Shown piece by piece: positions 114 to 24,146 of a stretch of DNA of 29,124 nucleotides. The stretch lies in contig CAWIIB010000003.1 in assembly GCA_963836075.1 (NCBI GenBank), positions 1 to 29,124 on the forward strand, in the 5' to 3' direction. The notes beneath the pieces were generated by a model, which saw only the letters and a list, made by a program, of their open reading frames with translations, made no database searches and was not told the DNA's origin. Source of the stretch: an uncultured Acidobacteriota bacterium (GTDB lineage Bacteria; Acidobacteriota; JAQAZP01). Made by a program: the position numbers and the translations under genes. How positions within the stretch are numbered: the first letter of the stretch is position 1; the number at the start of each line of letters is the position of its first letter.

Positions 114-999
114 ATGACTATCACCATCCGGGACCTGAGCAAGACCTACAAGGGCGGCGTTACCGCCCTCGAAGGGGTGAACCTGGAGATCCCCGCCCGC
201 ATGTTCGGCCTGCTCGGCCCCAACGGGGCCGGCAAGACCACGATGATAAAGATCCTTCTCACGCTGCTCCAGCCGACCTCCGGCGAAGTGAATATCGCGG
301 TGCTCGACGTGTCCAAAGACCGGCGGAAGATCCGTTCCCGGCTGGGCTACCTGCCCCAGGAGTTCGGCATCTACCCCAAGATGCGGGCCGGGAGTTTCTC
401 GACTTCATCGCCCGGCTGCAACGGCATGCTGAAGAGCGAGCGCGACCGGCGGGTGGACGAGATGCTGGAAAAGGTGGGGCTGGCCGACGCCGCGCGGCGC
501 AAGGTCAAGGCGCTCTCCGGCGGCATGCTGCGGCGGCTGGGCATCGCCCAGGCGCTGATCGGCGACCCCAACTGCTCATCGTCGACGAGCCCACCGTGGG
601 CCTCGATCCCGAGGAGCGGATCCGTTTCCGCGGGCTGCTCCCCGACATCGGCAGGAGATCGTGATCATCCTCTCCACCCACATCGTGGGCGACATCTCCA
701 GCGCCTGCGAAAACCTGGTGATCCTGGACAAGGGGAAGGTGCGCTACCGCGGCTCGCCGCCGGAACTGACGGCGAAGGCCGAGGGCAAGGCCTGGGAGAC
801 GGTGGCCCTGGAAAAGGACCTGCCGGCGATCAAGCAGCACTTCAGCGTGATCAGCACCGCCCCGCGCGGCGACCGGCTGCACCTCCGGCTGGTGGGCGAG
901 GGATCGGCCCCGGGCGTGGAACTGAAACCGGTAAAACCGAACCTGGAGGACGCCTACATCAACTTCATGGGCGGACTGGAGGAGGAAAACAATGTTTGA
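114..999 (+). CDS. ABC transporter ATP-binding protein (ABC-2/DrrA-like NBD), frameshifted in this assembly
   Basis: MTITIRDLSKTYKGG start, Walker A GPNGAGKT, Q-loop YLPQ, signature LSGGMLRR. Walker B/D-loop LLIVDEPTVGLDP reads in a shifted frame near 572-610. H-loop ILSTH and C-terminal PNLEDAY lie in ORF 661..999. Confidence 0.93.
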
Positions 1000-3900
1000 C
1001 CTCGCCGGAATCATGGGCCTGGCCAAGTACGAGGGCCGGCTCCTCCGCCGCACCTGGAAGTTCTGGATCCTGGCCGTGCTGGTCTCCATCGTCCTCTCGG
1101 TGAATCAAGATCTACCAGGGCGCCATCGTCGATTTCCTCTCCAGTTTCTCGGGCAGCATGGGCGGCTTCTACTCGCCGGGGAACATCTTCCAGAGCACGT
1201 TCCTCTTCTACAACATCCTCTTCGCCATCCTGCTCATCTGGTTCTGCTACGATTTCATCTCGCGGGACCGGCAGGTCCGGGTGGACGGGGTGCTGCACTC
1301 CCGCCCCCCGAGCACCTTCAGCCTGGTCTGGGCAAGTTTTTCGGCACCTTCAATCCGGTGGCCTTCATCGCCATCGTGCTCATCCCGCTGGCCACGCTGT
1401 TCTTCTACCTGGTGGCGGCCATCCTGCATTCCTTCTTCCCCTTCCTGGTCTTCCGCACCTACTTCCCGGTGACCCCCTACCTGGTGCAGGTGTTCGTCAT
1501 CACCCTGCCCTCGCTGGCCTTCATCATCGCCCTGGTCTTCTTCCTGGCCACGGTGACCAAGAGCCGGGTGGCGGCGATCATCATCGCCCATGCCTACGTG
1601 CTCATCGACATGGTGGCCTTCCTGCTTTCGGCTACTGGCTGCGCATCGAGTACGTGCCCATCGTCGATTTCAGCGGGTACAGTGTCCTCTCCTTCTACTC
1701 CGACCTCTCCGGGTTTTCCGATCTGCACCTGGTGCTGCTGCACCGCGGCTACATCATCGGCCTGACCCTGCTGCTGCTGGCCCTCACCGCCATGTTCCAC
1801 CCCCGCCTGGCCCAGGCCGGCCGGGTGTCGCAGCCGGTGCGCCTCACCGCCATCATCTGCGCACTGCTCGGCGTCTTTTACGCGGGGTACGTGGTCACCA
1901 CCGGGCACCGCTCCATCGCCTCGCGCACCGCAGGCCATGGCCGAACAGGAAGCGCTGGTGGAGCGGCCGCTGACCACGGTGACCCATTTCGACATGGACG
2001 TGGACCTGACCCGGGCGCACCACATCGCCGCCGAGGCGACGATGAGGGTGCGCAACGAAACCGACCAGCCCCAGGAGCTGCTGACCTTCGTCCTGAACAG
2101 CGGCCTCGAGGTGGACGAAGTGACCGGCCCCGGGGGCGAAGCACTGGAATTCGAGCGCGAACTGACGGTGCTTACGGTGCACATCCCAACCCTGGACCCG
2201 GGGGCCGAATCGGAGATCCGCGTGGCCTGGCAGGGCGGCATCCAGACCCCCACCCTGTTCCTGAACAGCACGCTGGAAATCAACGAACTGAAGGGCAACC
2301 AGCGGAACAACACCGCCATTCTCGGCGACCGGCCGGCGTTGATCACGCCCCGCTGCACCTACCTGGTGCCCCAGGTGCGCTGGTACCCGTCGCCCAACGT
2401 CGACTACGGCTACACCTACCCCGAAAAGAACGACGCCAACTACGCCACCACCGATGTTCGGATCTCAGTGCCCGAGGGCTGTTTCGCCATTTCCCAGGGG
2501 GAGCTGGCCGAGCGCAAACAGTCCGCCGGGAGCAGCACGCTGCACCACTACGTTTCCGATGTGCCGGTGCCCGGTATCTCGATCAACTCCGGCACCTACC
2601 AGGTGGTACGGGGCGAAATGGGCGGCATCACGACGAACCTCTACTACCTCGAAGCCCACGGGGAGAACATCGAGTTCTTCCGCTCCCTGTCCGACATCAT
2701 CCGCGAACAGGTGGAAGCCAAGCTGGAGGAGCTGAAGGAGACCACCGGCCTGGAATACCCCTACCCGGCGCTGAGCCTGGTGGAGGTGCCCGACTCCATG
2801 CGGGCCTATTCCGAGGGGTGGGACAGCCCCAACCCGCTGATCCAGCCCGGCGTGGTGATGCTCAAGGAATCGGGGTTCTTCAAGGCCAACTTCCAGTTCG
2901 GTTTCAACATCCGGTCCCGCAGCGCCCGGGAGGAAAGCGGGGACGAGGAACTGCCCACCGAGCGGGCCAACGAGATCAAGATGGAGATGCTGAAGACCTT
3001 CTTCGACCTCGACGTGCTCAGCGGCAACATGATCCAGAACGCCATGCAGAGCTTCTGGGGCTTCCAGGTCGACCCGGTGGGGCCGCTCTACCCGCTGGCC
3101 AGCCGGCGGCCTCGACAACTACATCAAGGAGATCGCCACCGAAAGCCGGCCGATGAGCTCGGTCTACTCGCTGATCAGCTTCAATGAAAACCAGCAGGGG
3201 ATGCCCGCGGCCATGTCGCAGGGCAAGTCGATCAGCGAGGCCGTGTTCGACACCATCTTCGACAAGAAGACCATCTACCCGGTGATCCTCGAGACGCCGC
3301 TGGCCGAGCTGGTGCCCGGGGACGACCCGGGGCTGTTCTACAAGGTGATGAGCTACAAGGGCCGGGGCTTCGTGGTCAGCCTGCGCGAGGCCATGGGGCA
3401 CGAGCACTTCCGCGCCATGATCATCGAGCTGCTGACCCGCTACCGCTACGGACACTACACCTTCGAAGACATGCGGCGGCTGGCCGAGGAGGTCAGCGGC
3501 GAGGACCTGGGCTGGTTCTTCGAGCAGTGGACCCACCGCACCGACCTCGCCGGGTACAAGGTGGTGGACCACGAGGCCTACCGCATCGAATCCGATGAGG
3601 AGATCCCCACCTACCAGGTGCGGCTGCAACTGGCCAACGAGGAAGCCACCGGCGGCTTCGTTATCGTCACCTTCCACACCCGGGAGGACGAGATCGAGAC
3701 GGCGGCTGAAGGTCAACGGCTACGAAACCGTGGAGGTGGCCCTGGTGGTGGCCGACGAGCCTCAGCGGGTGGTGGTGGACCCGATCCTGGCCCGCAACGA
3801 GGAGATGATCGAGAAGGAGTTCACCATTCCCGAGGAAGCGGTGGACGCCGAACCGGTGGAGCGGGTGGCCGTCATCGCCTCGGAACCGGCCGAGCAGCGC

Positions 3901-4443
3901 AAGGGACGTGATCGTCGACGACCTGGACCAGGGGTTCAGCCTCACCGGGACCGGCGGCGGCGGCCTGCTCCGCTGGCGTTCGGGGGAGGAGGGCGAGGAC
4001 GGGGAAGCGCCGGCCATCCCGGAGTACATCCGCGGTCTGCCCGACGAGTGGAACAACTGGACGCGCGACGAGGCATACGGTCTTTACAACCACACGATGA
4101 AGGTGAAGGGCGGCGGCGAGGGCGAGTTCTCGGCCCGCTGGGCCGCCGACCTGCCCCGCCGCGGCCGCTACGAGGTCTTCGTCTATATCGGCATCGAGGG
4201 GAAGACCTCCGCGTGCGCGATGAAGACGAAAGACTGGGCAGCAACTACCAATACACCATCGAGCACGAGGACGGCCCGGAGACGGTGACCTTCGACGCCA
4301 CCGGCGCGGAGGAGGGCTGGAACAGCCTCGGCACCTGGTACTTCTCGCCGGACAACGAGGCCGTGGTGCTGCTCAGCGACCAGGCCGACGGCGCGGTGAT
4401 CGCCGACGCGGTGAAGTTCAGCTACAACGAGAATGATGACTAG
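992..4443 (+). CDS. ABC-2-type permease fused to an M1 aminopeptidase-like domain (no HExxH) and a C-terminal golvesin/xanthan-lyase CBD-like beta domain; ~1150 aa after joining frames
   Basis: N-terminal LAKYEGRLLRR, several TM helices and ISRDRQVRVDGVLHSRP (ABC-2 permease motif). M1-like segments: WYP, YPYPALSLVEVP, SYKG..LREAMG.E.F, TFEDMRRLAEEVSGEDLGWFFEQW. C-terminal GWNSLGTWYF...VLLSDQADGAVIADAVKF. Pieces: 992..1765, 1158..1472, 1654.., 1937..3187, 3153.., 3595..4443, 3908..4288. Confidence 0.82.
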
Positions 4444-4452
4444 ATGAGCTAT

Positions 4453-4577
4453 CAAAACCTCAGCTGTGGTTCGAAAGCAAGGCGACGGTTGAGGAGAACG
4501 CGCAGCCCACTCACGATGGTATGTGAGCATTTCGACGAAGCCGTCAACGCAGCTATCGGATCTCGGATGAGGTTTTG
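4453..4577. repeat. Long imperfect palindromic intergenic element (structured RNA or MITE/REP-like)
   Basis: Terminal IR CAAAACCTCA (4453-4462) / TGAGGTTTTG (4568-4577). Nested stems GACGGTT/AGCCGTC and CTCAC/GTGAG. Confidence 0.6.
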
Positions 4578-4592
4578 CAAGGAGGCAACCGA

Positions 4593-5675
4593 ATGACCAC
4601 CAGATGCCCACAGGTCTCAATTGTCGCGGCGCTCTTCATCGTCCCGCTGCTCCTCGCCGCTGCGGGCTGCGGCGGCCAGGAGTCCACCGCCGGCCTGGAG
4701 GTGAAGATCCCGGTACGGGTGGAGGAGGCCGGGCGGGCCGACATCGCCGAATATCTCTCCACCACCGGCACGGTACGGGCGATCCAGGAGGTCAAGCTCG
4801 AGTCGCCGATGACCGGGTATCTGACCCTCGGGAAGCTGGGCGGCAACGGCCGGCGGCTGATCGAGGGTGACCCGGTGAAACAGGGACAGGTGGTCGCCCT
4901 GCTGGACAGCGAGGAGACGCGGGTCAACAAGAAGAGCGGCATCGACGCCCGCCGCGCCGAGCTGGAGAAGGCGCAGAGCGACTACGAGCGCTACAAGAAT
5001 CTCTACGACGAGGGATTCGTCTCCGAGCAGGAGATGAGGAACTACGAGAGCGCCCTGGCCACCGCGCAATACAACTACGACAACACGCTGATCGTCGAGG
5101 AGCAGACCAGGATCCTCGCCCCGATCTCCGGCCGGCTGACCTGGCTGATCCGCGATGTGGACGGGGCCAAGGTCACCGCCGGCGAGGAACTGGCCGAGGT
5201 GATGGACTTCTCCCAGGTGCTGGCCGACCTGGAGCTGCCCGGGGGCGACATCGCCCGGGTGGAGAAGGGGATGACGGTCAACATCACCAACTACGCCTAC
5301 CCCGACAAAGTGTTCGAGGGCAAGGTGCGCTACATCAGCTCCACCATCCAGGCCCAGTCCCGGACCTTCCGCGTGGAGGTGCTGCTGGCAAACAACGAGG
5401 GACTGGTGCGGCCGGGTATGTTCGTCAAGGCCGACATCGTCACCCGGGCCCGGACGCAGGCCCTGGTGCTGCCGCGGCACGCGGTGGTGATCCGCAACAA
5501 CCGGCCGTCGGTGTTCGTGGTCTCGCGGCAGAAGGCCGAGATGCGCGAGGTGGTCACCGGCCTCGAGGACGAGGACCGGGTGGAGATCCTCTCCGGCATC
5601 GAAGAGGGTGAGCGGGTGGTGGTCCAGGGCTACGAAACGCTCAAGGATAAGACACCGGTGAAGGTCAACTCCTGA
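4593..5675 (+). CDS. RND efflux periplasmic adaptor (membrane fusion protein), predicted lipoprotein
   Basis: GGAGG RBS at 4581-4585, lipobox-like LAAAGC, EGDPVKQGQVVALLD, helical hairpin, ILAPISG, SRTFRVEV, LVRPGMFV, VEILSGIEEGERVVVQG. ORF intact. Confidence 0.93.
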   Translation: MTTRCPQVSIVAALFIVPLLLAAAGCGGQESTAGLEVKIPVRVEEAGRADIAEYLSTTGTVRAIQEVKLESPMTGYLTLGKLGGNGRRLIEGDPVKQGQVVALLDSEETRVNKKSGIDARRAELEKAQSDYERYKNLYDEGFVSEQEMRNYESALATAQYNYDNTLIVEEQTRILAPISGRLTWLIRDVDGAKVTAGEELAEVMDFSQVLADLELPGGDIARVEKGMTVNITNYAYPDKVFEGKVRYISSTIQAQSRTFRVEVLLANNEGLVRPGMFVKADIVTRARTQALVLPRHAVVIRNNRPSVFVVSRQKAEMREVVTGLEDEDRVEILSGIEEGERVVVQGYETLKDKTPVKVNS

Positions 5676-8600
5676 TGAAAGCCATATCCAGCCTGGCGGT
5701 CCGTTTCCCGGTCACCGTGGTGATGATCTTCACCGGGGTGCTCCTGCTCGGCTACATCTCGCTGGACAAGCTGGGTATCGACCTGCTGCCCGACATCTCC
5801 AGCCCCAAGGTGGTGGTGGTGCTCGAGTCGGGGAACCGGCCGCCGCGGGAGATGGAGGACGTGTTCGGCGAGCAGCTGGAGTCCCAGCTGAGCACCATCA
5901 GCGGCGTCTCCCGGGTCTCGTCGGTCTCGCGGGTGGGCAGCATCATGGTCACGGTGGAGTTCTACTGGGACACCGACATGGACTTCGCCCTGCTCGAGGT
6001 GCAGAAGAACATCGGCTACCTCCAGGCGGACCGCGAGGTGGATGCCCTTTCCATCCGCCGCTTCGATCCCCAGGCCGCCCCGGTTCTGCGGGTGGGCATG
6101 TTCCCCGCGGGTGAAGAGCGACGCCGGGGCCGACCTGGACGAACTGCGGCGGCTGGCCGAAGACTATGTCCGACCGGCGCTGGAACGGCTGCGCGGCGTG
6201 GCCGCGGTGCGCATCTCCGGCGGCCGGGAGCGGGAGGTGATCATCGAGACCGACGAGTTTCTGCTCGACGCCATCGGCATCACCGTGGACGACGTGGCCA
6301 CCCGGGTGGCGGAGGCCAACATCGACAGCTCCGGCGGCACCCTCGAGGAAGACGGCAAAATCTACGTGATCAAGGGGGTGGGTCGGTTCACCGACCTGGA
6401 CCAGCTCCGCGCCCTCACCGTGGCCTACCTTGACCGGAGCAAGGCCCCCTCGGACCTGGTCTCCCAGAACACCGCCTTCGACCCGCTCAAGGTGCCGGTG
6501 CCCCTCTCCCGGGTGGCCCGGGTCTACTACGGGGACAAGGAGGTGCGCAACCTGGTGCGGATCAACGGTATCGAAGGTGTGGGCCTCTCGGTGCACAAGG
6601 AGGGCGGCAGCAACACGGTGACGGTGAGCGGCGACGTGCGCGACACCCTGGACCAGCTGAGCCGTTCGCTGCCCGGCGTGCGCTTCGAGGTGGTGCGCGA
6701 CCAGGCCCGCTTCATCACCGGCTCGATCCGCGAAGTGGAGGAGCAGGCGCTGATCGGCGCGCTGCTGGCCATCGTGATCCTCTTCCTCTTCCTGCGCAGC
6801 TTCGGCGCCACCCTGGTCATCGCCCTGGCCATCCCCCTCTCCATCATCGCCACCTTCGTGCTGATGTATTTCGCCGGGCTGAGCCTGAACATCATGACCC
6901 TCGGCGGCCTGGCCCTGGGAGTGGGCCTGCTGGTGGACAACGCCATCGTGGTGATCGAGAACATCTACCGCCACCTCCAGGCCGGCAAGGGCAAGATCGA
7001 GGCGGCCATCGACGGCGCGTCGGAAGTGGGCGGCGCGATCTTCGCCTCCACCTTGACCACCTGCGTGGTCTTCCTGCCCGTGGTCTTCATCGGCGACATC
7101 ACCGGCGAGCTTTTGAAAGAGCAGGCCTTCACGGTGAGCATCTCCCTGCTCTGCTCGCTGGTGGTGGCCATGGTGCTGATCCCCATGCTCGCCTCGCGGG
7201 TGCTGAAAAAGAAGCGGCTGCGGCGACGGATGGCGAGCACAAGGTGCGCAGCAGGGCGTACAACGGCCTGCTGGGCTGGGCGCTGAATCACAAGCTGATC
7301 GTGGTGGTGCTGACCCTGGTTCTTGGCCTGCTTGGCCGCCGAGGCCTTCCGGCGCAGCGGCACCGAGTTTCTGCCCCGGGCCGACCAGGGCGAGTTCGGC
7401 ATCCGGCTGGCGCTCCCCGAGGGGACGCTGGTGGAGCGGACCGCCGCGGTCTCCGGCTTCGTCGAGGACCTGCTGCTGTCGAATTTCGGCGACGAGATCA
7501 CCGCGGTGTACAGCGACATCGGCAAGCGGCGGCTGGAGGACGAGCTGCTCACCGAGGAGGTGTGGGACGAAAACACCGCGCTGGTCCTCGTTTCGCTGAA
7601 GCCGTTCAACCAGCGCGACCTGCACACCTCGGCGATCATCGGCGCCATCGACCCGGTGCTGCGCGACGTGCCCGACCTGGAGGCGACCTACAACCTCGGC
7701 GAGACCGCCCTGCAGCAGACCATCGGCTCCGGCGACGCGCCGGTGAGCATCGAGGTGCGGGGCCAGGACGTGGACCGGCTGCAGGAGATCAGCGACGGGG
7801 TGGCGGCCCAGCTGGCGGAAATGGGCGCCGCGGGCAAGGGGATCTACAACGTGCGCACCAGCTTCCAGGGCGGCCGCGAGGAGCTGGCGATCCACATCGA
7901 CCGGATGACCGCGGCCAGCCTGGGCCTCGACGTGACCTCCATCACCCGGTTGGTCAAGCGGAAGCTCTACGGCGAGGAGATCTCGATCTTCCGCGCCGAG
8001 GACGAGGACCGGGACATCTCGATCCGCCACCCGATGATGGACCTCAATCAGCTGCTCAACCTGGAGATCGAGAACCCCACCGGCACCCGGGTGCTGCTCA
8101 AGGACATCGCCCGGGTGGAGAGCGAGACCGGCCCGCGGGAAATCCTGCGCCGCGGCCAGTCCCGGGTGGGCCTGGTCCAGGCCGACCTGGCCGAGGGGGT
8201 GACGCTGAGCGAGGTGAGCGGCGAAATCGGCGAGCGCCTCGACGGGATGAACGTGCCGCGGGGCTACCGCTTCCTGGTGGGCGGCGAGGAGCTGCGGCGC
8301 CAGGAGTCTTTCGAGAAACTGCGCTTCGCCATGCTGCTGGCCCTCTTCCTGGTCTACATGGTGATGGCCTCGCAGTTCGAGTCGCTGGTCCACCCCTTCA
8401 CCATCATGCTCACCATCCCCATGGCCGGGATCGGCGTGGCCGCCTTCTTCTTCATCGCCGGGTTGCCGCTGTCGGTGATGGCCTTCATCGGCATCATCAT
8501 CCTCGCCGGCATCGCGGTGAACGACGGGATCATCCTCATCGACTTCGTCAATATCCTGCGCCGCCGGGGGATGAAGCGCCGTGAAGCGCTGCTGGCCGCC

Positions 8601-8825
8601 GGCCAGGCGAGGCTGCGGCCGATCCTGATGACCAGCTCCACCACCATCCTCGCCCTGCTGCCGCTGTCGCTGGGCTTTGGCGAGGGGGCCGAGCTGCGGG
8701 CGCCGCTGGCCTACGCCATCATCGGCGGGCTGGTCACCTCCACCATCCTGACCCTGGTGGTGCTGCCGGTGGCCTATGACCTGATCGACCGCCTGCGGCC
8801 CGCGGGGAGGGGGACGGACGCGTGA
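5675..8825 (+). CDS. RND permease subunit 1 (AcrB/MdtB-like), frameshifted
   Basis: AVRFPVTVVM, LGIDLLPDISSP, TM4 GLLVDNAIVVIENI, LASQFES-type motif (MASQFESLVHPF), GIAVNDGIILID, RLRPILMTS. Pieces 5675.., 6042.., 7323..8825. TGATG overlap with the adaptor gene. Confidence 0.93.
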
Positions 8826-11800
8826 ACCTCCCCACTTTCGCCATCAAGCGGCCGGTGACCACGGTGATGTTCTTCATCGCCCTGGGAGTGCTGGGCGTGA
8901 TCAGCTACACCACCCTGCCGGTGCAGCTGATGCCCAACTACATCTACCCCAAGATGTTCGTCTATGCCGGTTACCCCGGCGCCTCGCCGGAGAAGGTGGA
9001 GGAGGACCTGGTGGAGCGGCTTGAGGCCGAGATCGCCACCCTCGAGGACATCGAGGAGATCGAGGCCGACTCGAACCAGAACTACGGATTGATCACCGTC
9101 TCCTACAAGCTGGGCACCGACCTCAACTACGCCTATCTCAAGCTGGAGCAGAAGGTCAACGGCCTGATCGGCCTGCTGCCCGAAACCGCCACGCTCAGCG
9201 TGGAGCGCTTGGACACTTCGGCCTTCTCCAACTTCGTCATGCAGCTCAACGTGGCCGGGCCGGGGGGCCTGCCCTATATCCGCCGGCTGGCCGAGGAGAA
9301 GATCCAGCCCCGGCTGGAATCGGTGAACGGCGTGGTCAGCGTCCAGGTCTTCGGCGGGCAAAGACTGGGCGTGCAGGTGACCCTCGACGAGGACCGCCTG
9401 CGCTCCTACGGCATCATGCCGACCCAGGTGCTGGCCACCCTGAACGGCTTCCACCGGCGGCGGGAATTCGTCGGCGAGGTGGAGGTGGACGGGAAGCGCC
9501 AGTTCGCCATGGTGGAGGGGCGGTTCACCTCGCTGCAGGAGATCCGCGACCTGCCGTTGAATACCTTGGCAGCGGGACGATCTTCCTCCGCGACGTGGCC
9601 CGGGTGGAGGAGGCGGCGGACCGGCAGACCCAGGTCTCGCGGGTGGACGGCCACCCCACGGTGAGCGTGCTGATCCAGAAGGACGAGCAGTCGAACCTGA
9701 TCAAGGTGGCCCGTCTGCTGCGCCCGGAGATCGCGGCGATCAACGACGAGATGGCGCCCACCGGGGTGCGGGTCAGCACCGCCTTCGACAGCGCGGAGAT
9801 GATCGAGAAGGATATCGACCGGGTGAAAAAGCTGGCCCTGGGCGGCGGGCTGCTCGCCCTGCTGATGCTGCTGATCTTCCTCAGCGGCCCGCGCCGGTGC
9901 TGGTGGTCTCGCTGGCCATCCCGGTCTCGCTGCTGGTGACCTTCAACCTGATGGCCGCCTCGGGCCTGGCCATCGACGTGCTGACCCTGATCGGGTTGAC
10001 CCTCTCCATCGGCCTGCTGGTGGACAATGCCATCGTGGTGCTGGAGAGCATCACCCGGCACCGCGAGCGGGGCCAGCCGCGGATGGAGGCGGCGGTCACC
10101 GGCAGTTCCGAGGTGTTCAAGGCGATCATCGTCGGCACGGTGACCACCGTGGCGGTGTTCACGCCGCTGCTCTGGGTCAAGACCGAGTTCACCGAACTGT
10201 ACAACGACTTCGCCCTGGCCATCATCTTTCCCCTGCTGGTTTCGCTGCTGGTGGCGGTGACCCTGATCCCCATGCTGGCCAGCCGCCTGGGCCGGCGGGA
10301 CACGGGACGTAGACGTTCGACCCAGTCGAGGACCGCAAGCGGCCGCGGCGAGTGCTGCAGATCTACACCCTGCTGCTCAAGCAGCTGGCCCGGCACCAGG
10401 TGCTGACCACGGTCTCCTTCTTCGCCCTGCTGATGCTCACCGTGCTGGTCACCACCCCGATCATCCTCTTCCTCTTCGACGCCAGCCAGCCGCCCACCGA
10501 CCGCATCGAGATGAAGCTGGAACTGCCCGAGGGCACCGACCTGGAATCGACCCTGGCGGTCACCGCCCAGCTGGAGTCGCATGACCCTCGACCTGCCGGA
10601 CCGCAAGGTCACCAATTCCACCGTTCGCGAGGGCGAGGCCTTTGTCACCGTGGAGCTGCTGCCCGAGGACGAGCGGACCTCGGAGCAGTCGCTGGGCGCC
10701 ATCCGCCAGCGGCTCATCGACCGCACCCGGGAGCTGCGGGAGAGCAGCGCGGCCGACATCTACTTCGACCGCTCGCAGTTCCAGAGCGCGGCCGGGGGCG
10801 ATGACGGCGGCGGGGGCGCGCGCGGGAATGCTCGGCCTGACCCGCACCGAGGAGACGGTGGTGCTCACCGGCGAGGAGATGCCCCGGCTGGTGGACCTGG
10901 CCGGGGAGGTGGAATACCGGCTGAGGCAGATCGAAGGGGTGGACGGCGGCATCGATCCGCATGGACGTGGAGAAGGCCACCCCGGAGGTGCGGCTGGAAG
11001 CCCGCTACCGCGACCTGTCGGCCTGGGGGCTCTCCATGCGCCAGGTGATGGGCCTGCTCTGGATGGCCCGCCGGGACGGGGACCGGCTGACCTACCCCTA
11101 CCGCGACCGGCAGGACGACGAGATGCAGATCCAGGTCCGCCTGGGCGAGGAGGGGGAGTGGGGTTTCAGTGACCTGCGGGACCTCTCCATCCCCACGCCC
11201 AACGGCGAGTTCGTCCGGGTGGCGGAGCTGATGGACTTCCGCCGGGAGGCCGGCCTGCCCAGCCTCAAGCGCCACCAGGGGACCCACCGGATCCGCCTCT
11301 ACTACGGCTACGACGACCGAGGTGCTGGACACCCAGACCCGCCTCGACGAACTGCGCGGGACGTGGACGAGCTGCTGCTCGCCATCCCCCTGCCCCGGGG
11401 CTACACCCTGGCCGCGGAGCGGGAGGACGAGGAGACGAACGTCTGGAAGTTCATGCTCTACGTGGCGCTGATCCTGGTCTACATGATCCTCGCCGCTTCG
11501 TTCGAGTCGTTCAACCTGCCGCTGCTGATCCTCTTCACCATCCCCATGGCCCTGATCGGGGTGCTGATCCTGGTGGCGGTCACCGGGGTCGGCCTCGGTC
11601 CGCTGGTCTTTCTCGCCCTGCTGGTGCTGCTGGGCATGGTGGTGAACAACGGCATCCTGCTCATCGATTACGCCCGGCAGCTGGTGCGCAACAAGGGGTT
11701 CCGCCCCGAACGGGCGATCATCGCCTCGGGCCGGGCCCGCTTCCGCCCGGTGATCATGACCGCCACCACCACCATGGTGGGCATGCTGCCGCTGGCCATG

Positions 11801-13595
11801 CGCATGGGCGGCGAGAACGAGATCTGGCCCCCCTTCGCCATCGCGGTGATCGGCGGCATGGCCACCGCCACCGTGGGCACCCTGCTGCTGATCCCCATGG
11901 GCTTCCTCTCCTTCCGCCACATCGGTCTCTGGATCCGGAAGACCCTGGGCCTGCCCTGGGCCCTGGCCGGCACGCTGCTCGCCGCCGTGGCGATCTGGGC
12001 GCTCTACTTCCAGCTGGGCTGGGTCACCTCCGAGGTCTGGCGGATCATCTTCCTCCTGCCCCTCTGGTTCGCCGGTCTGGGCCTGGTGCGCTTCGGCCTC
12101 TGGCTGGCCCGGGGCAAAGAGCGGCGGGAAATCTTCAGCACCGACGAGACGCTGGACATCAGCGTGCGGGAGCTGAAGAAGATCTACGGTGAGGACGGCC
12201 CGTTCCTCCGCGGCTGGAAACAGAACGCCCGCTGGCTGAAGCACGCCCGGCAGCGGGGCATGCGGCTGAACAACCGCGGCCGGCTGGCCCAGGACCTGAT
12301 CTGGAAGGTGCCCGTGCTGGGCCTGCTCTTCTACCTGCTGACCTATTTCGAGAACCGCCTCTGGCTCTTCATCTTCATCGGCATCACCTGGTATTTCGTG
12401 CGCGACTTCCTGGTCACCATGGCCGCCCTGTGGCGCTTTCGCAAGGGTGTCGAACCAGCCGCCGGCACGCCGGTCCGCTTCTCCGAAACCCGCTGGCTGA
12501 ACCTGCTCTTCGGCCTCTCCCTGGCCGTCATGGCCCTGGTCCAGGCCCACGTATCCTGTGAGTTGAACTACGTGCTTCACCATCACCCTCACCTCCCTGC
12601 TGGGCCTGGGGACCCTGGCCCTGCGCACCGGGGCCAGGCTGCGGCGGGGTGAACTGAGCACCGAAGGGCGAGGGGGAAACATCTTCAAGCGGATCGCCCG
12701 CAGCTGGCGGCGGCTGGTGGCCGCCATCCCCCGGGTGGGCCGGGACAAGGAGCGGGTGGCCGCGCTGCGCGGGCTGTCGCTGGACATCGGCGCCGGCATG
12801 TTCGGCCTGCTGGGCCCCAACGGCGCGGGCAAGACCACCCTGATGCGGGTGATCTGCAACATCTACGAGCAGAGCCGCGGCACGGTGTCGATCAGCGGCC
12901 GCGACCCGCGGGAGCACCGGGACGCGGTGCAGAGCCTGGTGGGCTACCTGCCGCAGAATTTCGGGGTCTACGAGAACTTCACCGCCTGGGAGCTGCTCAA
13001 CTACTACGCCCTGCTCAACGAGATCTATGACCGGGAGGAGCGGGAGAAGCTGGTCACCAGCGTGCTCAATCGTGTGGCCCTCTTCGAGCGGAAGGACGAG
13101 AAGCTGAAGGGCTACTCCGGGGGGATGAAGCAGCGGGTGGGCATCGCCACCGCGCTGCTGCACCTGCCGCGGATCATCGTGGTGGACGAGCCCACCGCCG
13201 GCCTCGATCCCAAGGAACGGATCCGCTTCCGCAACCTGCTGGCCGAGCTGGCCAAGGAGCGGATCGTCATCTTCTCCACCCACATCGTCGAGGACATCTC
13301 CGGCACCTGCAACCGGGTGGCGGTGATGGACAAGGGCCGGGTGATCTTCGACGGCACCGTGGAGGAGATGATCGACCGCACCCGGGGCAAGGTCTTCGAG
13401 GCGGTGACCGAGGAGCAGCAGCTGACCGAGCTGTCCAAACGGCTCAAGGTGGTCAACCACATCGGCGAGGGATTCGACAAGATCCGGCTGCGCTTCCTGG
13501 CCGACGGCCCGCCCGCGGACCTGGAAGCCGAGGACGCGGAGCCGAACCTCGAGGACGCCTATCTCTACCTGCGCGGCGGGACCGCGCCGGTATAG
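8822..13595 (+). CDS. RND permease subunit 2 fused to extra TM helices and a C-terminal ABC ATPase domain; ~1590 aa after joining frames
   Basis: AIKRPVTTVM, TM4 GLLVDNAIVVLESI, ASFESFNLP, GMVVNNGILLIDY, RFRPVIMT. The frame continues past RND TM12 through extra TMs. One indel near 12575 joins it to the NBD ([43 protein letters not shown]). No RBS or ATG precedes the NBD. Confidence 0.85.
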
Positions 13596-13600
13596 GGGGC

Positions 13601-13668
13601 CAGGCCATATTGCTCGCAGCGAAGGTCGACTTCGTCTCCAGACGTCGCTCAGGAGCAACATCGGCCTG
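13601..13668. repeat. Intergenic REP-like long hairpin
   Basis: CAGGCC-ATATTGCTC..AGCGA (13601-13622) pairs with TCGCT..GAGCAACAT-GGCCTG (13645-13668). Inner GACTTCGTC mini-hairpin. Confidence 0.6.
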
Positions 13669-13703
13669 ACCTGATTGGAGATTAAAGAGGAGTGAAGCGA
13701 ACG

Positions 13704-14421
13704 ATGGCGAAGAAGATGCGCGGAAGAATCGGATCGTGGCTGCTGCTCTTCCGGCTCTGCCTCAAGGTGACCTTCTCCACCCGCTACTGGTTCCTGCTGG
13801 TGGGCGGGCTGGTCTACTTCGTCATCATCTGGCTGATGCACGCCTTCGGGGACGAGCCCTACACCTCGCTGGAGGTGCTGAACATGATCCTCACCCCGCC
13901 CGGGGTCTTCCTCTCCATCCTGCTGGGCATGCAGCTGGTGCTCCAGGAACGGGAAACCGGGACCATCGAGGTGATGTTCGCCATCTCCCGCTCGCGCTAC
14001 CGGGTCTGGCTGCTCAAGGCACTGACCGTCTACATCGCCATCTTTGTCCTGCACCTGATGCTGGCCGTGCTGACCTAGATCTTCATCACCGACTTCCCCT
14101 TCCTGCCGGTGCTGCTGAACAGCATGGTCCCGGCGCTCTTCTTCGGCAACCTGACCATGCTCTTCACCATCCTCACCCGCTCCACCAACGGCGGGGCGCT
14201 GCTGGCCAGCATCGTCCTCGTCCTGATCTTCCTCTTCCAGGGCGGCTGGAACGACTCGATCATCTACCCCTTCCTCAACCTGCAGGAGCTGGCCCAGGAC
14301 CTGCCCAGCGAGGAATTCTTCCGCATTGCCATCGTCAACCGCCTGCTGGTGCTGGGCGTGGCCTTCTGCCCTGCTCGGCCTGGCCCTCCGCCGCACCAAC
14401 GCCCGCGAGCGGTTGTTGTAG
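13704..14421 (+). CDS. Small ABC-2-type permease (~6 TM), with an in-frame TAG at 14076-14078 and a 3' frameshift
   Basis: Hydrophobic helices and the QERETGTIEVMF motif typical of ABC-2 permeases. ORFs 13692..14078 and 14109.. share one frame. A shifted frame ends LLGLALRRTNARERLL* at 14421. Confidence 0.8.
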
Positions 14422-15624: not shown

Positions 15625-16142
15625 GTGACCGGCAAAAAACTCATTTATTCCAGTATTCCTTCTCGGGACCTTCGTCCTGCTGGCGCTTGTGTCCACGCAC
15701 CAGGCGGCGGCGCTGACCGAGAAAGCGGACCTGTCCACCCTCACCGCCCGGGCGGACCAGATCGTCACCGGCGAAGTGGTGCGGACCGAATGCTTCGCCG
15801 TCGAGGACGGCAGGATCTACACCCGGGCCACAGTGGCCGTCACCGAGAACCTCAAGGGTGTCAAGAGCGCCGAGGTGGAAGTGGTCATCCCCGGCGGCAC
15901 CGTGGGTGAAACGACCATGCGGATGTCCGAGGCGCCCAGCTTCACCGAAGGTGAATCTGTGATCCTCTTCCTCAAGAACAGCGGAAACCGGCTGGCCGGC
16001 TGGTTCCAGGGCAAGTATGTGGTGGTGGACGGTATCGCCTACCAGTCTGCCCCCAGCTGCGGCACGCTGATCATGGAGGGCGGGCTGCCCGCCGACGAGC
16101 TGCTCCAGACACATCCGGACCGAAATTCTGGCCCAGCAGTAA
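15625..16142 (+). CDS. Secreted hypothetical protein, same OB/TIMP-like family (paralog 2), frameshifted
   Basis: AGGAGGT RBS with GTG 15625; signal peptide spans a frameshift. DLSTLTARADQIVTGEV...IYTRATVAVTENLKG...IPGGTVG...EAPSFTEGESVILFL. A shifted frame ends IRTEILAQQ* (TAA 16140-16142). Confidence 0.7.
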
Positions 16143-16217
16143 ATGGATCAGCACCAGATGATTATGCACGCACATACGCCTATCCGCTCAGCGAAGGAGA
16201 GAAGGAGGAGCAAGAGA

Positions 16218-17572
16218 ATGAGATTCACCCGGATTACCCTGTATTTCGCCCTGGCCGGCCTGCTGCTGGTCCTGGCCGGCCCGGCCCAGTATGCCGCCGG
16301 TTACGGCCTCTGCGGCTACGACTGGGACTACCAGGCCAACCCGATGGGCGAGAACTACCGCATCAATGCCAACTGCGTCGATGCGGCCGCCGGCACCACC
16401 GCCGACCAGATCGCCTACATCCAGAACGGCGCGGCCGCCTGGAACGGCGCCGGCGCCTGCTTCGAGTTCACCTACGGCGGCACCACCACCGGCACCAGCG
16501 TGACCTACAACAACATCAACATCGTCTACTTCGACACCACCCCGCCGGACGGCGGCGGCTACATCGCGGCCACCTACATCTGGGCCTCGGGGGGCAACGT
16601 CACCGAGAACGACCTGGTGTTCAACGACCAGAGCTACACCTGGAGCGGTGTGGGCAACCCCACGGCGCAGCGAGTTCGATATCTGGAACATCGCGACCCA
16701 CGAGTTCGGCCACTACCTCTGCCTCGACGACCTCTACGGCGGCGGCGACTCGGCCAAGACGATGTACGGCTACGGCAGCCCGGGCCAGACCTACGCCCGG
16801 ACCCTGCACTCCGACGACATCGCCGGCATCCAGGCGATCTACGGCGTCTGCGACGACTGCACCGACGACGGCTACGAGAACAACGACTCGTTCGCCGCGG
16901 CCAGCGCGATCAGCGCCGGCACGATCAACAATCTGCAGATCTGCACCCTCGACGAGGACTACTTCTCCTTCAGCGTTCCCGAAGGGGACGGACATCCAGG
17001 TGGACATCGCCTTCACCCACGCCAGCGGCAACCTGAGCCTCTATCTCTACAACCCGGCGCAGTCGCTGATCGACATCTCCACCAGCTCCACCGACAACGA
17101 AAGCGTGTCGGCCAGCGGCGTCACCGCCGGCACCTACTACGCCAGGGTCCTCGGGGCTTCCGGCGCGGAGAACACCTACAGCCTGACCCTGACCATCACC
17201 GCGTCCGGGCCGACGATGCACACGTCCTCGGCTGTGTCCCGGAATCGCGGCACCCTGCCCTACACCTTGCAGCTGCTGGCCCCAGCTCTGCAACGACGAC
17301 TGGTTCACCCGCCGGCTCCACGGCAGGATTGAACGTGACCACCGCCAACGGCACCACCTACTACAACTGGCGGGCCGGCGCCACCAACGTGAGCCCCGGC
17401 CATCTGCTACAACACGCCGTTCGGGGTGAACCTGCCGAACCTGCCCTCGGTGCGGGGACTGAACACCTTCACCCTCATCGGCACCGACATCACGGCACCG
17501 CCGTACAACCAGCCGCCCTACTCGCCATCGGGTGACACCGACATCGACTCCTGCACCACCACCGGCAACTAG
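16218..17572 (+). CDS. Secreted matrixin-like (M10/metzincin) zinc metalloprotease with PPC domain and Cys-containing C-terminal domain, frameshifted
   Basis: AGGAGG RBS, signal peptide MRFTRITLYFALAGLLLVLAGPA, ENDLVFND..YTW, ATHEFGHYLCLDD, Met-turn TMYGY, LHSDDIAGIQAIYG. PPC-like DDGYENNDSF...DEDYFSF...NLSLYLYN...GTYYARV. Confidence 0.85.
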
Positions 17573-17578
17573 CGATCC

Positions 17579-17619
17579 AGGGCCTCTCCCCCATCGCGGG
17601 GGAGAGGCCCTTTCCTTTC
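17579..17619 (+). terminator. Rho-independent terminator
   Basis: 14-bp stem AGGGCCTCTCCCCC / GGGGGAGAGGCCCT, 5-nt loop and T-rich tail, just after the protease stop. Confidence 0.85.
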
Positions 17620-17636
17620 GTCCCCCGGCCATCCTG

Positions 17637-17665
17637 TTGACAGCCCCCCCTTTACCTCCTATAGT
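17637..17665 (+). promoter_or_regulatory. Sigma70 promoter of the DEAD-box helicase
   Basis: TTGACA (17637-17642), 17-nt spacer, TATAGT (17660-17665). Confidence 0.8.
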
Positions 17666-17751
17666 CGCTACGGCTTGAAAACGAACAACATCCGGTTGCC
17701 GACCGCTGTCGATCACCCGATCGGACCGAGCCGGGTCCGGCCCCGAGAAGA

Positions 17752-19199
17752 GTGGAAAACAGATTGAGCACACCAACGTTTGAAGAGATGGGCCTCAGCC
17801 CGGCGATCCTCGAGGGACTGGCCAGAATGGGCTACACCAAGCCCACCGATGTCCAGGCCGAAGCGATTCCCCTGGCCCTCGAGGGCCGCGACCTGATGAT
17901 CCAGTCGCGGACCGGCACCGGCAAGACCGCCTGCCTACGGGATTCCCGCTTCGATGCGGCTGGACACCAGCCTGAAAAAGGTCCAGTTCCTCGCCCTCAC
18001 CCCGACCCGCGAACTGGCCCTGCAGTTCGCCGGGGACCTGGCCCAGATCAACGCCTGCACCGGCGTGCTGGTGACCTGCATTTACGGCGGCGCCTCGTAC
18101 ACCAAGCAGATGCGCGACCTGGAGGCCGGGGCCCTGATGGTGGCCGGCACCCCCGGCCGGGTCCTCGACCACCTGCGCCGCCGCACCCTCGACCTCAGCG
18201 CCCTGAAGATGCTGGTGCTGGACGAGGCGGACCGGATGCTCGACATGGGCTTCTACGAGGAGATCTCCGCGATCCTCGAGCGCTGCCCGAAGAAGCGGCA
18301 GACCCTTCTCGGTTCGGCCACCTTCCCCGGCTCGATCGTCCGCATGGCCCAGTCCTACCAGCGGGACCCGCACAAGATCGCCCTCTCCGACGACTCGATC
18401 TACGTCAAGGAGGTGGAGCACCGCTACTACATCACCCGGCAGATGGAGAAGGACCGGGACCTCTACCGCCTGATCGAGATCGAGCGCCCCTCGTCGTCGA
18501 TCATCTTCTGCAACACCAAGGACGACGTGCGGATGGTCTTCAACACCCTGCGGCGCCGGGGGCTCAAGGTGGCGATGCTCACCGGCGACCTGGCCCAGGA
18601 GCGGCGGGAAAAGATCATGGCCAACTTCCGGCAGAAGAAGGTCAAGCACCTGGTGACCACCGACGTGGCCTCCCGGGGCATCGACGTGGAGGACGTCTCC
18701 CACGTCTTTCTCTACTCCGCCCCCCAGACCCCGGAGGACTACATCCACCGGGCCGGCCGCACCGGCCGGATGGGCAAATCGGGCGTGGCCATCTCCTTTG
18801 TCTCCGCCGTGGACCTGCTCAACTTCAACCGCCTGGTCAACGCCCACCACCTGGTGGTCAAGGAGGGGCCGCATCCCCACCGACGAGGACGTTGAAGAAT
18901 CGGCCCGCCAGCGCCTGCTGAACCAGATCCGGGTGCTGGAGGACAAGGCCTCGGCCCAGGACCTGGAAACCCTCGAGCCGCTGGCCCAGGACCTGCTCGA
19001 ACAGGATGACGCCCAATCGCTGGTCTCGCTGCTGCTCAACCTCTACCTCAACCCACCTGAAGCCGACCCGGCGGACATGCCGGCGCCCTCGCCGATCAAC
19101 CGGCGGAACAGGTGCCGCCCGAACCAAAAGCGGAAAAACCGCCCGGCCAGGGACGGCGGCCGCGGACGCCCCCGCCGTCCCCGCAACCGTCGCCGGTGA
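17752..19199 (+). CDS. DEAD-box ATP-dependent RNA helicase, frameshifted
   Basis: Q motif GYTKPTDVQ, motif I TGTGKT, Ia PTRELA, Ib GTPGRV, II LDEAD, III SAT, V TDVASRGID, VI HRAGRTGR, and a basic Arg/Gly tail. Confidence 0.93.
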
Positions 19200-22300: not shown

Positions 22301-22720
22301 CGCCACCACCTCCGGGATCCCACGACCGGAAGAACCAGCCGGCCGCCCAGCGCCGGACAGCGCTCGGAGAGTCCCCATCGACCTGAACAAGGCCCTGGCC
22401 CTGGTTTCCGGTGACCGGGGATTCCTGGTGGAGCTGCTGCGCGAATATCTCGATGACATCCCGCAGCGCCTGGAAAAGATGGGGCAGGCCATCGCAGACC
22501 GCCGACGCCGACACCGTCCGCCGCACGGCGCACAGCATCAAGGGCGCCTCCACCAGCCTGGGCACGGAGAAGATCGGCTCGCTGGCCCTGCACCTCGAGG
22601 CCCGGGCCGCTTCCGGAAACCTGGACGAGGCTCCGGACCTGCACCGGCAGATGCTGGACCGGTTCATCGGGCTGGAAGGTCTTCCTGAAGGCCGAATTCC
22701 CCGAGCTGGCCGAGGCCTGA
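19390..22720 (+). CDS. Cytoplasmic hybrid sensor histidine kinase (PAS-GAF-PAS-HisKA-HATPase-REC-REC-Hpt), heavily frameshifted
   Basis: PAS (LKKKDGTLIW...GVIEDITD), GAF (IGVPVIYQGRL), H-box FLANMSHEIRTPLNG, NLVGNAIKFT, DTGIGI, GGTGLGL, two receivers (VLVVDDN..ILDLKLP; ILLAEDH..LMDIQMPEMDG), Hpt AHSIKGAS. Start and end are approximate. Confidence 0.88.
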
Positions 22721-22774: not shown

Positions 22775-22804
22775 TTGACAACATTTGACCCCTCACCCTA
22801 TAGT
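22775..22804 (+). promoter_or_regulatory. Sigma70 promoter of the radical SAM-pnp unit
   Basis: TTGACA (22775-22780), 18-nt spacer, TATAGT (22799-22804). Confidence 0.7.
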
Positions 22805-22873
22805 GAGTGCTCCGTTCTCCCGCCTCGCGGGAGTGTTCCGAATCGCCGCCAATGCAGTGGAAGGGGGCCGACA

Positions 22874-24143: not shown

Positions 24144-24146
24144 TCA

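Follow-up and report, generated by a model that had tools for sequence, protein, structure and literature searches.

Pumps of the resistance-nodulation-division (RND) superfamily are secondary active and ATP-binding cassette (ABC) exporters primary active efflux systems, and the two are treated as separate machines. Here we describe a cluster of six genes at positions 114 to 14,421 of a 29,124-nucleotide stretch of DNA from an uncultured Acidobacteriota bacterium (contig CAWIIB010000003.1 of assembly GCA_963836075.1, here contig C3 of genome G000; the whole stretch, which is the complete contig, is referred to as the window). The cluster specifies an adaptor, two RND permeases (RND1 and RND2), two putative ABC-2-type transmembrane domain proteins (TMD1 and TMD2) and two ABC nucleotide-binding domains (NBD1 and NBD2), of which NBD2 forms the C-terminal part of the RND2 polypeptide. 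The system resembles MdtABC, MacAB-TolC and the NosDFY/ABCA exporters but belongs to none of them; it is a covalent hybrid of two known kinds, RND and ABC.

In MdtABC and MuxABC the adaptor gene precedes a pair of neighbouring paralogous RND permease genes, and the same gene order is found here. Among solved structures, MdtB is also the one that best matches the membrane segments of RND2 (9lyq_B, E values of 7.3e-23 and 3.4e-30). Unlike RND2, the Mdt and Mux permeases have neither extra helices nor an ATPase, and MdtB carries D-D in transmembrane helix (TM) 4 and K in TM10, whereas the permeases of this cluster carry D-N and either N-N or N-D. The MdtB2C1 stoichiometry of the heterotrimer, as given in a passage of PMC7015380, provides a precedent for heteromeric RND assemblies. 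MacAB-TolC is similar in that an ABC ATPase and an HlyD-type adaptor (and, in the Bacteroidales loci described below, a TolC-family gene) are found in one cluster, and in the idea of ATP-driven efflux. The periplasmic domain of MacB lies between TM1 and TM2 and its NBD at the N-terminus. By contrast, the permeases described here are ABC-2-like with about 6-7 predicted helices, the ectodomain follows the last TMD1 helix and the NBDs are free or fused to RND2, such that none of these proteins is of MacB type; according to a passage of PMC8277102, MacB unites an NBD with a four-helix permease of its own that bears a periplasmic domain. ABC-2 (type V) exporters such as NosDFY are similar with respect to NBD2, the model of which matches the NBDs of NosF, TM_1403 and ABCA proteins. 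Large ectodomains are present in ABCA1/ABCA4, and that of TMD1 is reminiscent of them; unlike in NosDFY/ABCA, this ectodomain has the fold of an M1 aminopeptidase, and one NBD is interrupted by four helices and fused to an RND protein. The likeness to the M1 aminopeptidases (APN, ERAP1/2, IRAP) is one of fold, with Pfam Peptidase_M1 matching the C-terminal part of the catalytic domain; unlike these enzymes, the TMD1 domain is without HExxH and GxMEN and is anchored to an ABC-2 permease. No functional description of an RND-ABC fusion or of an ABC-2/M1-like protein was found in the full-text literature searched, and a first-pass annotation of this DNA, made from the sequence alone, had likewise known of none. 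The matching passages of a 2021 review of tripartite pumps contain no such fusion.

Anatomy and conservation of the RND2-NBD2 fusion

Assembly G000 comprises 10 contigs, the main ones being C9 and C1, and a second copy of the window was found at C9:1329587-1301662 (opposite strand). The two are collinear from end to end, with nucleotide identities of 74.5%, 87.4% and 84.8% in three blocks, and all six cluster genes are intact in the C9 copy. The C9 fusion is an open reading frame (ORF) of 1588 aa in which the RND profile ACR_tran (PF00873) spans residues 5-1029 (E value of 1.1e-183, profile positions 3-1020) and the ATPase profile ABC_tran (PF00005) residues 1314-1457. The proposal of the first-pass annotation that an RND subunit covalently includes one of the ABC NBDs was supported by intact ORFs of about 1560-1620 aa that carry both profiles in C9, in seven further genomes and in all of the 120 best database matches listed. 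In the first sample of 41 genomes (which includes unpublished genome G025, on which no claim rests), stop-free RND-ATPase frames of 1599-1834 aa were detected in G000 on C9, in two congeners and in five genomes of other families. The window itself has a single open frame at 10925-12652 that runs from RND TM helices (ACR_tran profile positions 702-1020) through extra hydrophobic helices to the first strand of the ATPase (LDISVRELKKIYG); thus, the continuity of RND permease and ATPase is independent of any frame correction. An artefact of assembly or gene calling was considered as the source of the fusion and is ruled out by the intact frames in C9, in relatives and in cultured isolates.

The features of the cluster as located in the window are listed below, one per line.

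114-999, plus strand: NBD1, a free ABC ATPase of DrrA/GldA type (ABC_tran 7.7e-26 in piece 3-1103); by tblastn in frame 3 to about 593 and in frame 1 from about 652
992-4443, plus strand: TMD1, an ABC-2-like permease with M1-aminopeptidase-like and Golvesin_C domains; several frameshifts
4575-5675, plus strand: adaptor (membrane fusion protein); HlyD_D23 5.9e-24 and HlyD_3, HlyD adaptor in piece 4527-5675
5675-8825, plus strand: RND1, a full-length RND permease in three pieces; frame changes near 6110 and 7230-7330
8822-11910, plus strand: RND2 module of the fusion gene, a 12-TM RND permease; at least 6 frame changes
11915-12758, plus strand: linker of the fusion, matching C9 linker residues 1-220 and 221-281; one frameshift near 12573
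Within the linker: two hydrophobic helices at about 11951-12070; NBD2 strand 1 with the A-loop Tyr (LDISVRELKKIYG) at 12152-12190; four-helix membrane insertion at about 12296-12650
12756-13595, plus strand: NBD2 core and C-terminal regulatory domain; ABC_tran 7.3e-28 in piece 12567-13595
Within NBD2: Walker A at 12813-12839; signature YSGGM from 13113; Walker B DE at 13173-13208; H-loop at 13272-13295
13704-14421, plus strand: TMD2, a small ABC-2-type permease of about 238 aa with about 6 TM helices; one frameshift near 14367

Pfam analysis of 20 stop-to-stop pieces of the window bore out the coordinates and domain order given in the first-pass annotation. Pieces of RND1 (across 5651-8825) covered positions 1-141, 146-498 and 544-1020 of the ACR_tran profile, four pieces of RND2 (8780-12652) covered positions 3-246, 250-354, 359-490 and 702-1020, and TMD2 piece 13686-14078 gave weak ABC2_membrane matches (E values of 0.0016 and 0.0055, 16-18 bits) below cut-off. 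The three start/stop overlaps (992/999, 5675 and 8822/8825) are literal in the sequence, as ATGTTTGA at 992-999, TGATG at 5673-5677 and GTGA at 8822-8825. The count of six co-directional genes stands for domains, order and coordinates but not for open frames in the window, where the adaptor alone is intact. That the arrangement exceeds chance is evident from the intact C9 copy and from its recurrence in other genomes.

The architecture of the fusion was examined by an AlphaFold2 model of residues 860-1588 (40-sequence alignment; mean pLDDT of 80.8, pTM of 0.60) and a hydrophobicity scan. By these approaches, two helices (1042-1062 and 1069-1095) were found past RND TM12, followed by a strand at 1111-1120 (IAVRELKKVY, model residues 252-261, block pLDDT of 92), a short amphipathic helix and then four hydrophobic helices at 1150-1173, 1177-1205, 1220-1242 and 1249-1272 (model residues 291-314, 318-346, 361-383 and 390-413). 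The remainder of the NBD2 ATPase starts at about residue 1307. Since a DSSP strand needs a partner and the only other strands of the model are those of the NBD, strand 1111-1120 must pair with an NBD strand in the model. NBD1 aligns to the fusion in two blocks, residues 3-12 (ITIRDLTKTY) to 1111-1120 with 5 of 10 identical, and residues 13-288 to 1307-1584 with 125 of 278 identical (45%). Residues K1118 and G1121 are invariant and Y1120 is nearly invariant among the 40 sequences. Based on alignment and model, NBD2 is read as a paralog of NBD1 in which the first strand and A-loop Tyr appear to be split from the core by an insertion of about 186 residues with four membrane helices. With even numbers of added helices (two and four), all parts of the ATPase would stay cytoplasmic. 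A fold search with the fusion model matched TM_1403, NosF (7osf_B and 7o0y_C), LptB and ABCA NBDs; among the 49 matches listed, nothing resembled the insertion and no PDB chain was, by its title, a fusion to an RND protein. An ESM Atlas search with the linker gave no usable match.

The combination of PF00873 and PF00005 in one protein recurs widely: all of the 120 best matches listed in a database search with linker plus ATPase carry both, and 111 of these are at least 1458 aa long. Their source names include Latescibacterota, Krumholzibacteriota, Zixibacteria, KSB1, Gemmatimonadota, Chlorobi and cultured Marinifilum species (WP_321295213.1 and WP_120240926.1). In the database such fusions are named 'efflux RND transporter permease subunit', by which the ATPase is hidden. 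When ten shorter relatives were scanned with Pfam, eight were found to begin inside ACR_tran and are thus cut pieces; in P0126 and P0127 no ACR_tran was seen, and each could be either free-standing or a cut piece. In the 616-aa protein P0300 (public contig of 3.95 Mb), residues 156-607 match the fusion from its first ATPase strand onward to the C-terminus, and residues 47-122 match RND periplasmic residues 676-751, as if the RND membrane part were deleted. No clean split form of the fusion was found among the shorter matches examined, as judged from proteins without genomic context. Within the phylum, the linker was detected in at least 18 of 401 sampled genomes and at least 12 of 371 good-quality ones, counts that are a lower bound as the query misses genomes G005 and G023; the linker is too divergent for a single-sequence search to size the family.

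Fourteen loci of the phylum, all outside the window, were examined for the partner genes. All six genes were found together in 11 (G000-C9, G001, G002, G022, G004, G039, G105, G054, G243, G053 and G117), and five of six in two others, G005 (TMD2 undetected with the query used) and G023 (NBD1 not within the locus). The last, in G163, has a rearranged partial set. Seven loci form one co-directional string, and in six NBD1-TMD1 is divergent from adaptor-RND1-RND2NBD2-TMD2. TMD2 is immediately downstream of the fusion in 13 of the 14 loci and in all three Bacteroidales loci. The first-pass annotation had made its proposal depend on ABC and RND genes being linked, in the same order, elsewhere. Linkage was found in every locus, whether of six genes (11/14), five (2/14) or a partial set (1/14), and the outcome does not refute the proposal.

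At the rearranged G163 locus (L103, C5:922700-940180), TMD2, the RND2-NBD2 fusion, a 263-aa RND1 fragment and an M1/Golvesin ORF on the opposite strand were observed, and neither adaptor nor NBD1 was seen. The locus may represent decay or rearrangement of the system.

Beyond the phylum, two of the three Bacteroidales loci (both from metagenome-assembled genomes) have the order OEP(TolC family)-adaptor-RND1-RND2NBD2-TMD2, one of them preceded by an M1/Golvesin protein, and the third, on a short contig with a truncated fusion (L021), has RND2NBD2-TMD2. The in-cluster OEP/TolC genes are at L020:1256-2785 and L022:986-2488. In a contig scan with the linker alignment, L020 and L021 covered query positions 5-346 and L022 positions 103-346, and the rest of the 80 loci listed covered the Walker A end only. 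The fusions of this phylum and of Bacteroidales are about 30-40% identical.

Partner ATPase, permeases and adaptor

The C9 ortholog of NBD1 is a 295-aa protein (ABC_tran 3.1e-34) with DrrA and GldA as best NCBIfam matches, both below cut-offs. Walker A, signature, Walker B (DE) and H-loop are present in all seven NBD1 sequences compared, and a regular expression for the Q-loop matched six of the seven. In NBD2, Walker A, Q-loop, signature, Walker B D-E and H-loop are invariant among the 40 sequences. With Pfam ABC_tran scores above cut-off and the motifs in place, both belong to the ABC ATPases and, judging by these motifs, both look catalytically competent. In a maximum-likelihood tree, NBD1 (12 rows, support of 85/80) and NBD2 (17 rows, 98/95) form sister clades, apart from seven of the eight other G000 ABC ATPases sampled; the eighth (other1_G000) is in the same polytomy (30 rows, 96/97). 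Internal branching of the two clades is parallel, as would be expected for a pair inherited together, which is no proof of contact. Each NBD gene adjoins a TMD gene (NBD1-TMD1 and NBD2-TMD2), often with overlapping stop and start codons.

The C9 copy of TMD1 is 1146 aa in length, with matches to Golvesin_C (5.7e-19), Peptidase_M1 (1.4e-07) and ABC2_membrane_2 (4.8e-05); in the window, a Peptidase_M1-like match (26.1 bits, cut-off of 27.7) was found in piece 3033-3911 and Golvesin_C in piece 3436-4443. About seven TM helices are predicted by hydrophobicity scan, and the ectodomain, made of the M1-like and Golvesin_C domains, follows the last of them. An AlphaFold2 model (35-sequence alignment; pLDDT of 83.8, pTM of 0.80) was compared by Foldseek, and the top matches were IRAP, ERAP1/2, APN and PSA with E values of about 1e-19 over about 630-690 columns at 12-14% identity. 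M1 zinc aminopeptidases have an HExxH-(18)-E zinc site and a GxMEN exopeptidase motif. HExxH and GxMEN are absent from 35 of 35 TMD1 family sequences, as the zinc motif is from 6 of 6 in a smaller set, and the domain does not qualify as an M1 zinc aminopeptidase. Residues H543, E585 and E613 are invariant in these 35 (numbering of the C9 protein, L019:1193-4612, minus strand), and the segments at E585 (LVEVP) and E613 (KEAGF) are presumed here to be possible counterparts of the M1 GAMEN and NEGFA elements. The three residues may mark a zinc-free ligand-binding site of a pseudo-peptidase, and a non-catalytic binding domain is the best reading of the M1-fold ectodomain from its sequence and model. 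In JGI, the TMD1 family bears the name of the NosY-type permease.

The C9 ortholog of TMD2 has about 238 aa, about six helices by hydrophobicity scan and an ABC2_membrane_2 score of 29.7 bits (cut-off of 27.2). A profile comparison of TMD1 with TMD2 was considered as proof of their homology and rejected at an hhalign probability of 20.8%.

The C9 ortholog of the adaptor scored 214.8 bits against TIGR01730 (RND_mfp; cut-off of 94.9) and is thus an RND adaptor; its actual start is later than that of the longest ORF. In the window, the adaptor N-terminus (4593-4680) resembles a lipoprotein signal (...LLLAAAGC), with the likely ATG at 4593, and such a start looks like what is expected of a membrane-anchored RND adaptor. 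Both RND1 and RND2 match ACR_tran over its full length and belong to the RND superfamily (C9 RND1, 1051 aa, 1.7e-232, profile positions 1-1020 of 1021); they are encoded by adjacent paralogous genes with a 4-nt overlap. The narrower NCBIfam model NF033617 (RND_permease_2) has a cut-off of 1250 bits and was reached by neither, RND1 scoring 669.2 and the fusion 540.8. In AcrB, protons are relayed by D407 and D408 (TM4), K940 (TM10) and R971 (TM11). By direct alignment, RND1 and RND2 have VDN in TM4 where MdtB, MexB and MdtF have VDD, and in TM10 they have VND (RND1) and VNN (RND2) where these three carry Lys (KN). The TM11 Arg (R..RP..MT) is retained in both, and overall the HAE-1 relay is incomplete. 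Loss of proton coupling as a property specific to the fused pump was considered and rejected: the D-N / N-N pattern is also found in three or four unfused RND paralogs among the 13 RND-like frames of G000 (C9:1842762, C1:1213378 and, similarly, C1:1216569). Because it is common to these unfused paralogs, the pattern says nothing specific on the fusion.

With regard to outer-membrane factors, a 526-aa ORF upstream of NBD1 on C9 was considered as a hidden candidate and rejected, as it had no Pfam match and an E value of 0.40 against the Bacteroidales OEP. Elsewhere in the genome, C9:127651-132345 (minus strand; L100:652-5346) is a stop-free frame of 1565 aa in which ACR_tran (44-1064) with an AcrB-like DD/K relay is followed by two OEP (TolC-family) repeats; this is either a fusion of an RND permease to an outer-membrane factor or the product of a lost stop or frame error.

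Source contig and its interrupted reading frames

The adaptor gene (4575-5675) is the only one of the six that is unbroken in the window by ORF listing. Region 992-4443 is divided into ATG/GTG/TTG ORFs of 257, 500, 252 and 282 aa in differing frames, and region 8822-13595 into ORFs of 280, 114, 169, 150, 176, 563 and 292 aa. When the C9 proteins were compared to the window by tblastn, RND2-NBD2 was found in eight pieces of alternating frame, RND1 in three and NBD1 in two; TMD1 and TMD2 are likewise frame-broken. Genes outside the cluster are similarly affected, with the DEAD-box helicase in three pieces and the M10 protease in two. A C9 ORF of 700 aa with two RNase PH domains corresponds in the window (24095-26250) to ORFs of 276 and about 442-465 aa; probably a frameshift has divided a polynucleotide-phosphorylase-like gene there.

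The window most likely holds a real and conserved six-gene system in a copy full of errors, with assembly error in a co-binned relative as the likeliest cause of its frameshifts. This reading rests on indels spread across the genes of the contig, on the codon positions of the substitutions and on the nature of the other small contigs. Mismatches between window and C9 fall at codon positions 1/2/3 in the numbers 47/34/179 for RND1, 19/11/83 for the DEAD-box helicase and 154/102/321 for RND2-NBD2, a third-position bias from which it follows that both copies evolved under purifying selection. All seven small contigs (C2-C7 and C10) are 53-94% covered by alignments of at least 1.5 kb to C9 or C1, at 67-95% identity, nearly all of them collinear with one stretch of C9 or C1. 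Read most simply, a second, related organism was binned together with the main genome and is represented by fragments in the small contigs (the contamination estimate of G000 is 4.61%); such fragments, if assembled at low depth, would abound in indel errors.

We consider it improbable that the window is instead a genuinely decayed, pseudogenised duplicate of the C9 cluster and no assembly artefact. The frame-breaking indels are numerous and occur also outside long homopolymers, as such decay would have it; against this, they are spread across the contig's genes, among them those for the helicase, the kinase and the protein with two RNase PH domains, the substitutions bear the mark of purifying selection, and seven of seven small contigs are diverged collinear copies, which fits a second genome and not a local duplication. 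In addition, contigs from public runs read as C9 at frame-breaking sites 9566 (3 of 4 runs), 10580 (1 of 4) and 10951 (1 of 4). These contigs are short and come from relatives at 90-99% identity to the window (mostly 90-95%), not demonstrably from the source organism, such that the pseudogene reading can point out that they cannot prove its sequence. Stretches at low depth carry no information in this comparison. The runs with relatives are marine or salt-marsh sediment metagenomes (word shares of at most 0.20).

Downstream of the cluster, window regions 15689-19153 and 20260-22700 encode an M10 metalloprotease with a PPC domain, a DEAD-box helicase and a hybrid histidine kinase/response regulator, with frameshifts relative to intact C9 counterparts. 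A radical SAM gene (22775-24094) looks unbroken.

Proposed mechanism and competing explanations

Taken together, we favor a heterodimeric ABC-2 exporter that is tethered through RND2 to a heteromeric RND-adaptor(-outer-membrane factor) pump, with the ABC part feeding the RND part, and assign this reading a probability of roughly 0.55. Its computed part consists of the parts list, the fusion, the conservation and the integrity of the motifs. In a single ABC-2 (type V-like) exporter, NBD1 would pair with NBD2 as a heterodimeric motor, and TMD1 and TMD2 would make up the two halves in the membrane. Since NBD2 is tethered to RND2, the exporter would be seated on a heteromeric RND trimer, presumably with one RND2 per trimer by analogy with MdtB2C. 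At the expense of ATP, the ABC part would move, extract or flip the substrate from the cytoplasm or inner leaflet to the periplasmic side, where the zinc-less M1-like ectodomain may hold it, and the RND-adaptor-outer-membrane-channel part would then expel it, presumably by use of the proton-motive force. From the M1-like ectodomain, we would guess that the substrate is peptide-like or amphiphilic.

The first-pass proposal of an ABC core that assembles on the RND oligomer, with ATP- and PMF-driven steps coupled, has indirect evidence behind it, namely the adjacency of the genes, the paralogous pair of NBDs, the intact catalytic motifs and a weak complex prediction. The association of the parts was examined by complex prediction for linker+NBD2 (559 aa, alignment of 40) with TMD2 (238 aa, alignment of 10), with three controls. 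The pair scored 0.51 compared to 0.00 for the best control (partner pLDDT of at least 69; at least 77% of contacts in agreement between runs), a result graded as weak support. In calibration, 58 of 80 solved complexes reached the mark, as did 2 of 110 mismatched pairs; only 7 of the 80, and both mismatches, did so with scores of 0.60 or below. The pass may reflect the likeness of NBD-permease pairs to solved complexes.

Several observations weigh against the tethered exporter. This prediction, weak and with no interface reported, is the sole interaction test. As assembled, the window copy cannot encode the cluster proteins. The linker is poorly conserved, with 29 matches at E values of 1e-3 or below in a linker-only phmmer search of 1.84 billion representatives, and as a query it fails to find the fusion in G005 and G023. 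The assignment of TMD1 as an ABC-2 permease half is below threshold (ABC2_membrane_2 at 23.2 bits, cut-off of 27.2), and its profile match to TMD2 is marginal (hhalign E value of 0.0011). The G000 cluster has no gene for an outer-membrane factor, the nearest OEP match being about 28 kb away at C9:1357130. From the alignments, use of the proton-motive force by a canonical relay is not established for RND1 or RND2. Finally, a trimer with two RND2 subunits could bring about an NBD2 homodimer instead of the NBD1-NBD2 pair.

More tentatively than the tethered exporter itself, we consider a dual-energised, envelope-spanning machine in which the ABC-2 exporter would form one complex with a proton-driven RND trimer, being wired into an RND subunit by its membrane-inserted, split NBD. 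One and the same passage of substrate would thereby be acted upon by ATP hydrolysis and by proton flux, in an outward relay or through gating of the RND cycle by ATP. An alternative to the tethered exporter, and an unlikely one in our estimate, is an RND pump that is itself driven or gated by ATP: the power stroke of an NBD dimer (NBD1-NBD2 or NBD2-NBD2) would be transmitted by the six linker helices to the membrane domain of RND2, with proton coupling replaced or gated, the small permeases and the ectodomain protein as accessories and no separate ABC pathway. The insertion between A-loop strand and core, conserved in outline among 40 sequences, does look like a transmission element, and both permeases are without the second TM4 Asp and the TM10 Lys of MdtB, MexB and MdtF. 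Yet the D-N / N-N pattern is a subfamily trait shared by unfused paralogs of G000 and no correlate of the fusion, TM4 Asp and TM11 Arg are retained, and the conservation of two ABC-2 permeases beside two NBDs is hard to explain without an ABC pathway.

Less probable still are two independent machines, an ABC exporter and an RND pump that are co-encoded and co-localised, with the fusion fixing their expression ratio or position and no coupling between them. A passive tether of this kind might evolve as fast in sequence as the linker does, and NBD1-TMD1 is indeed a separate, divergent operon in 6 of the 14 loci of the phylum; such a tether needs neither six helices nor an insertion into an ATPase fold kept across phyla. 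The fusion has moreover been retained at the low identity that separates this phylum from Bacteroidales, and the shorter matches examined, judged from the proteins, provide no clean split form, being mostly cut at the N-terminus and, in P0300, still with an RND remnant.

The findings reveal an RND-ABC chimera with conserved partner genes that spans several phyla in the neighbourhood of Bacteroidota, Gemmatimonadota and Latescibacterota, cultured Marinifilum included, and that a frameshift-ridden small contig can still reveal real biology when an intact copy is present in the same bin. The system lets one ask whether two energy sources are coupled within one efflux complex, how substrate is handed over from the inner membrane to a tripartite pump and what role a membrane-inserted, split ATP-binding domain has. 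If true, the dual-energised machine would represent a class of transporter beyond the division of efflux into primary and secondary.

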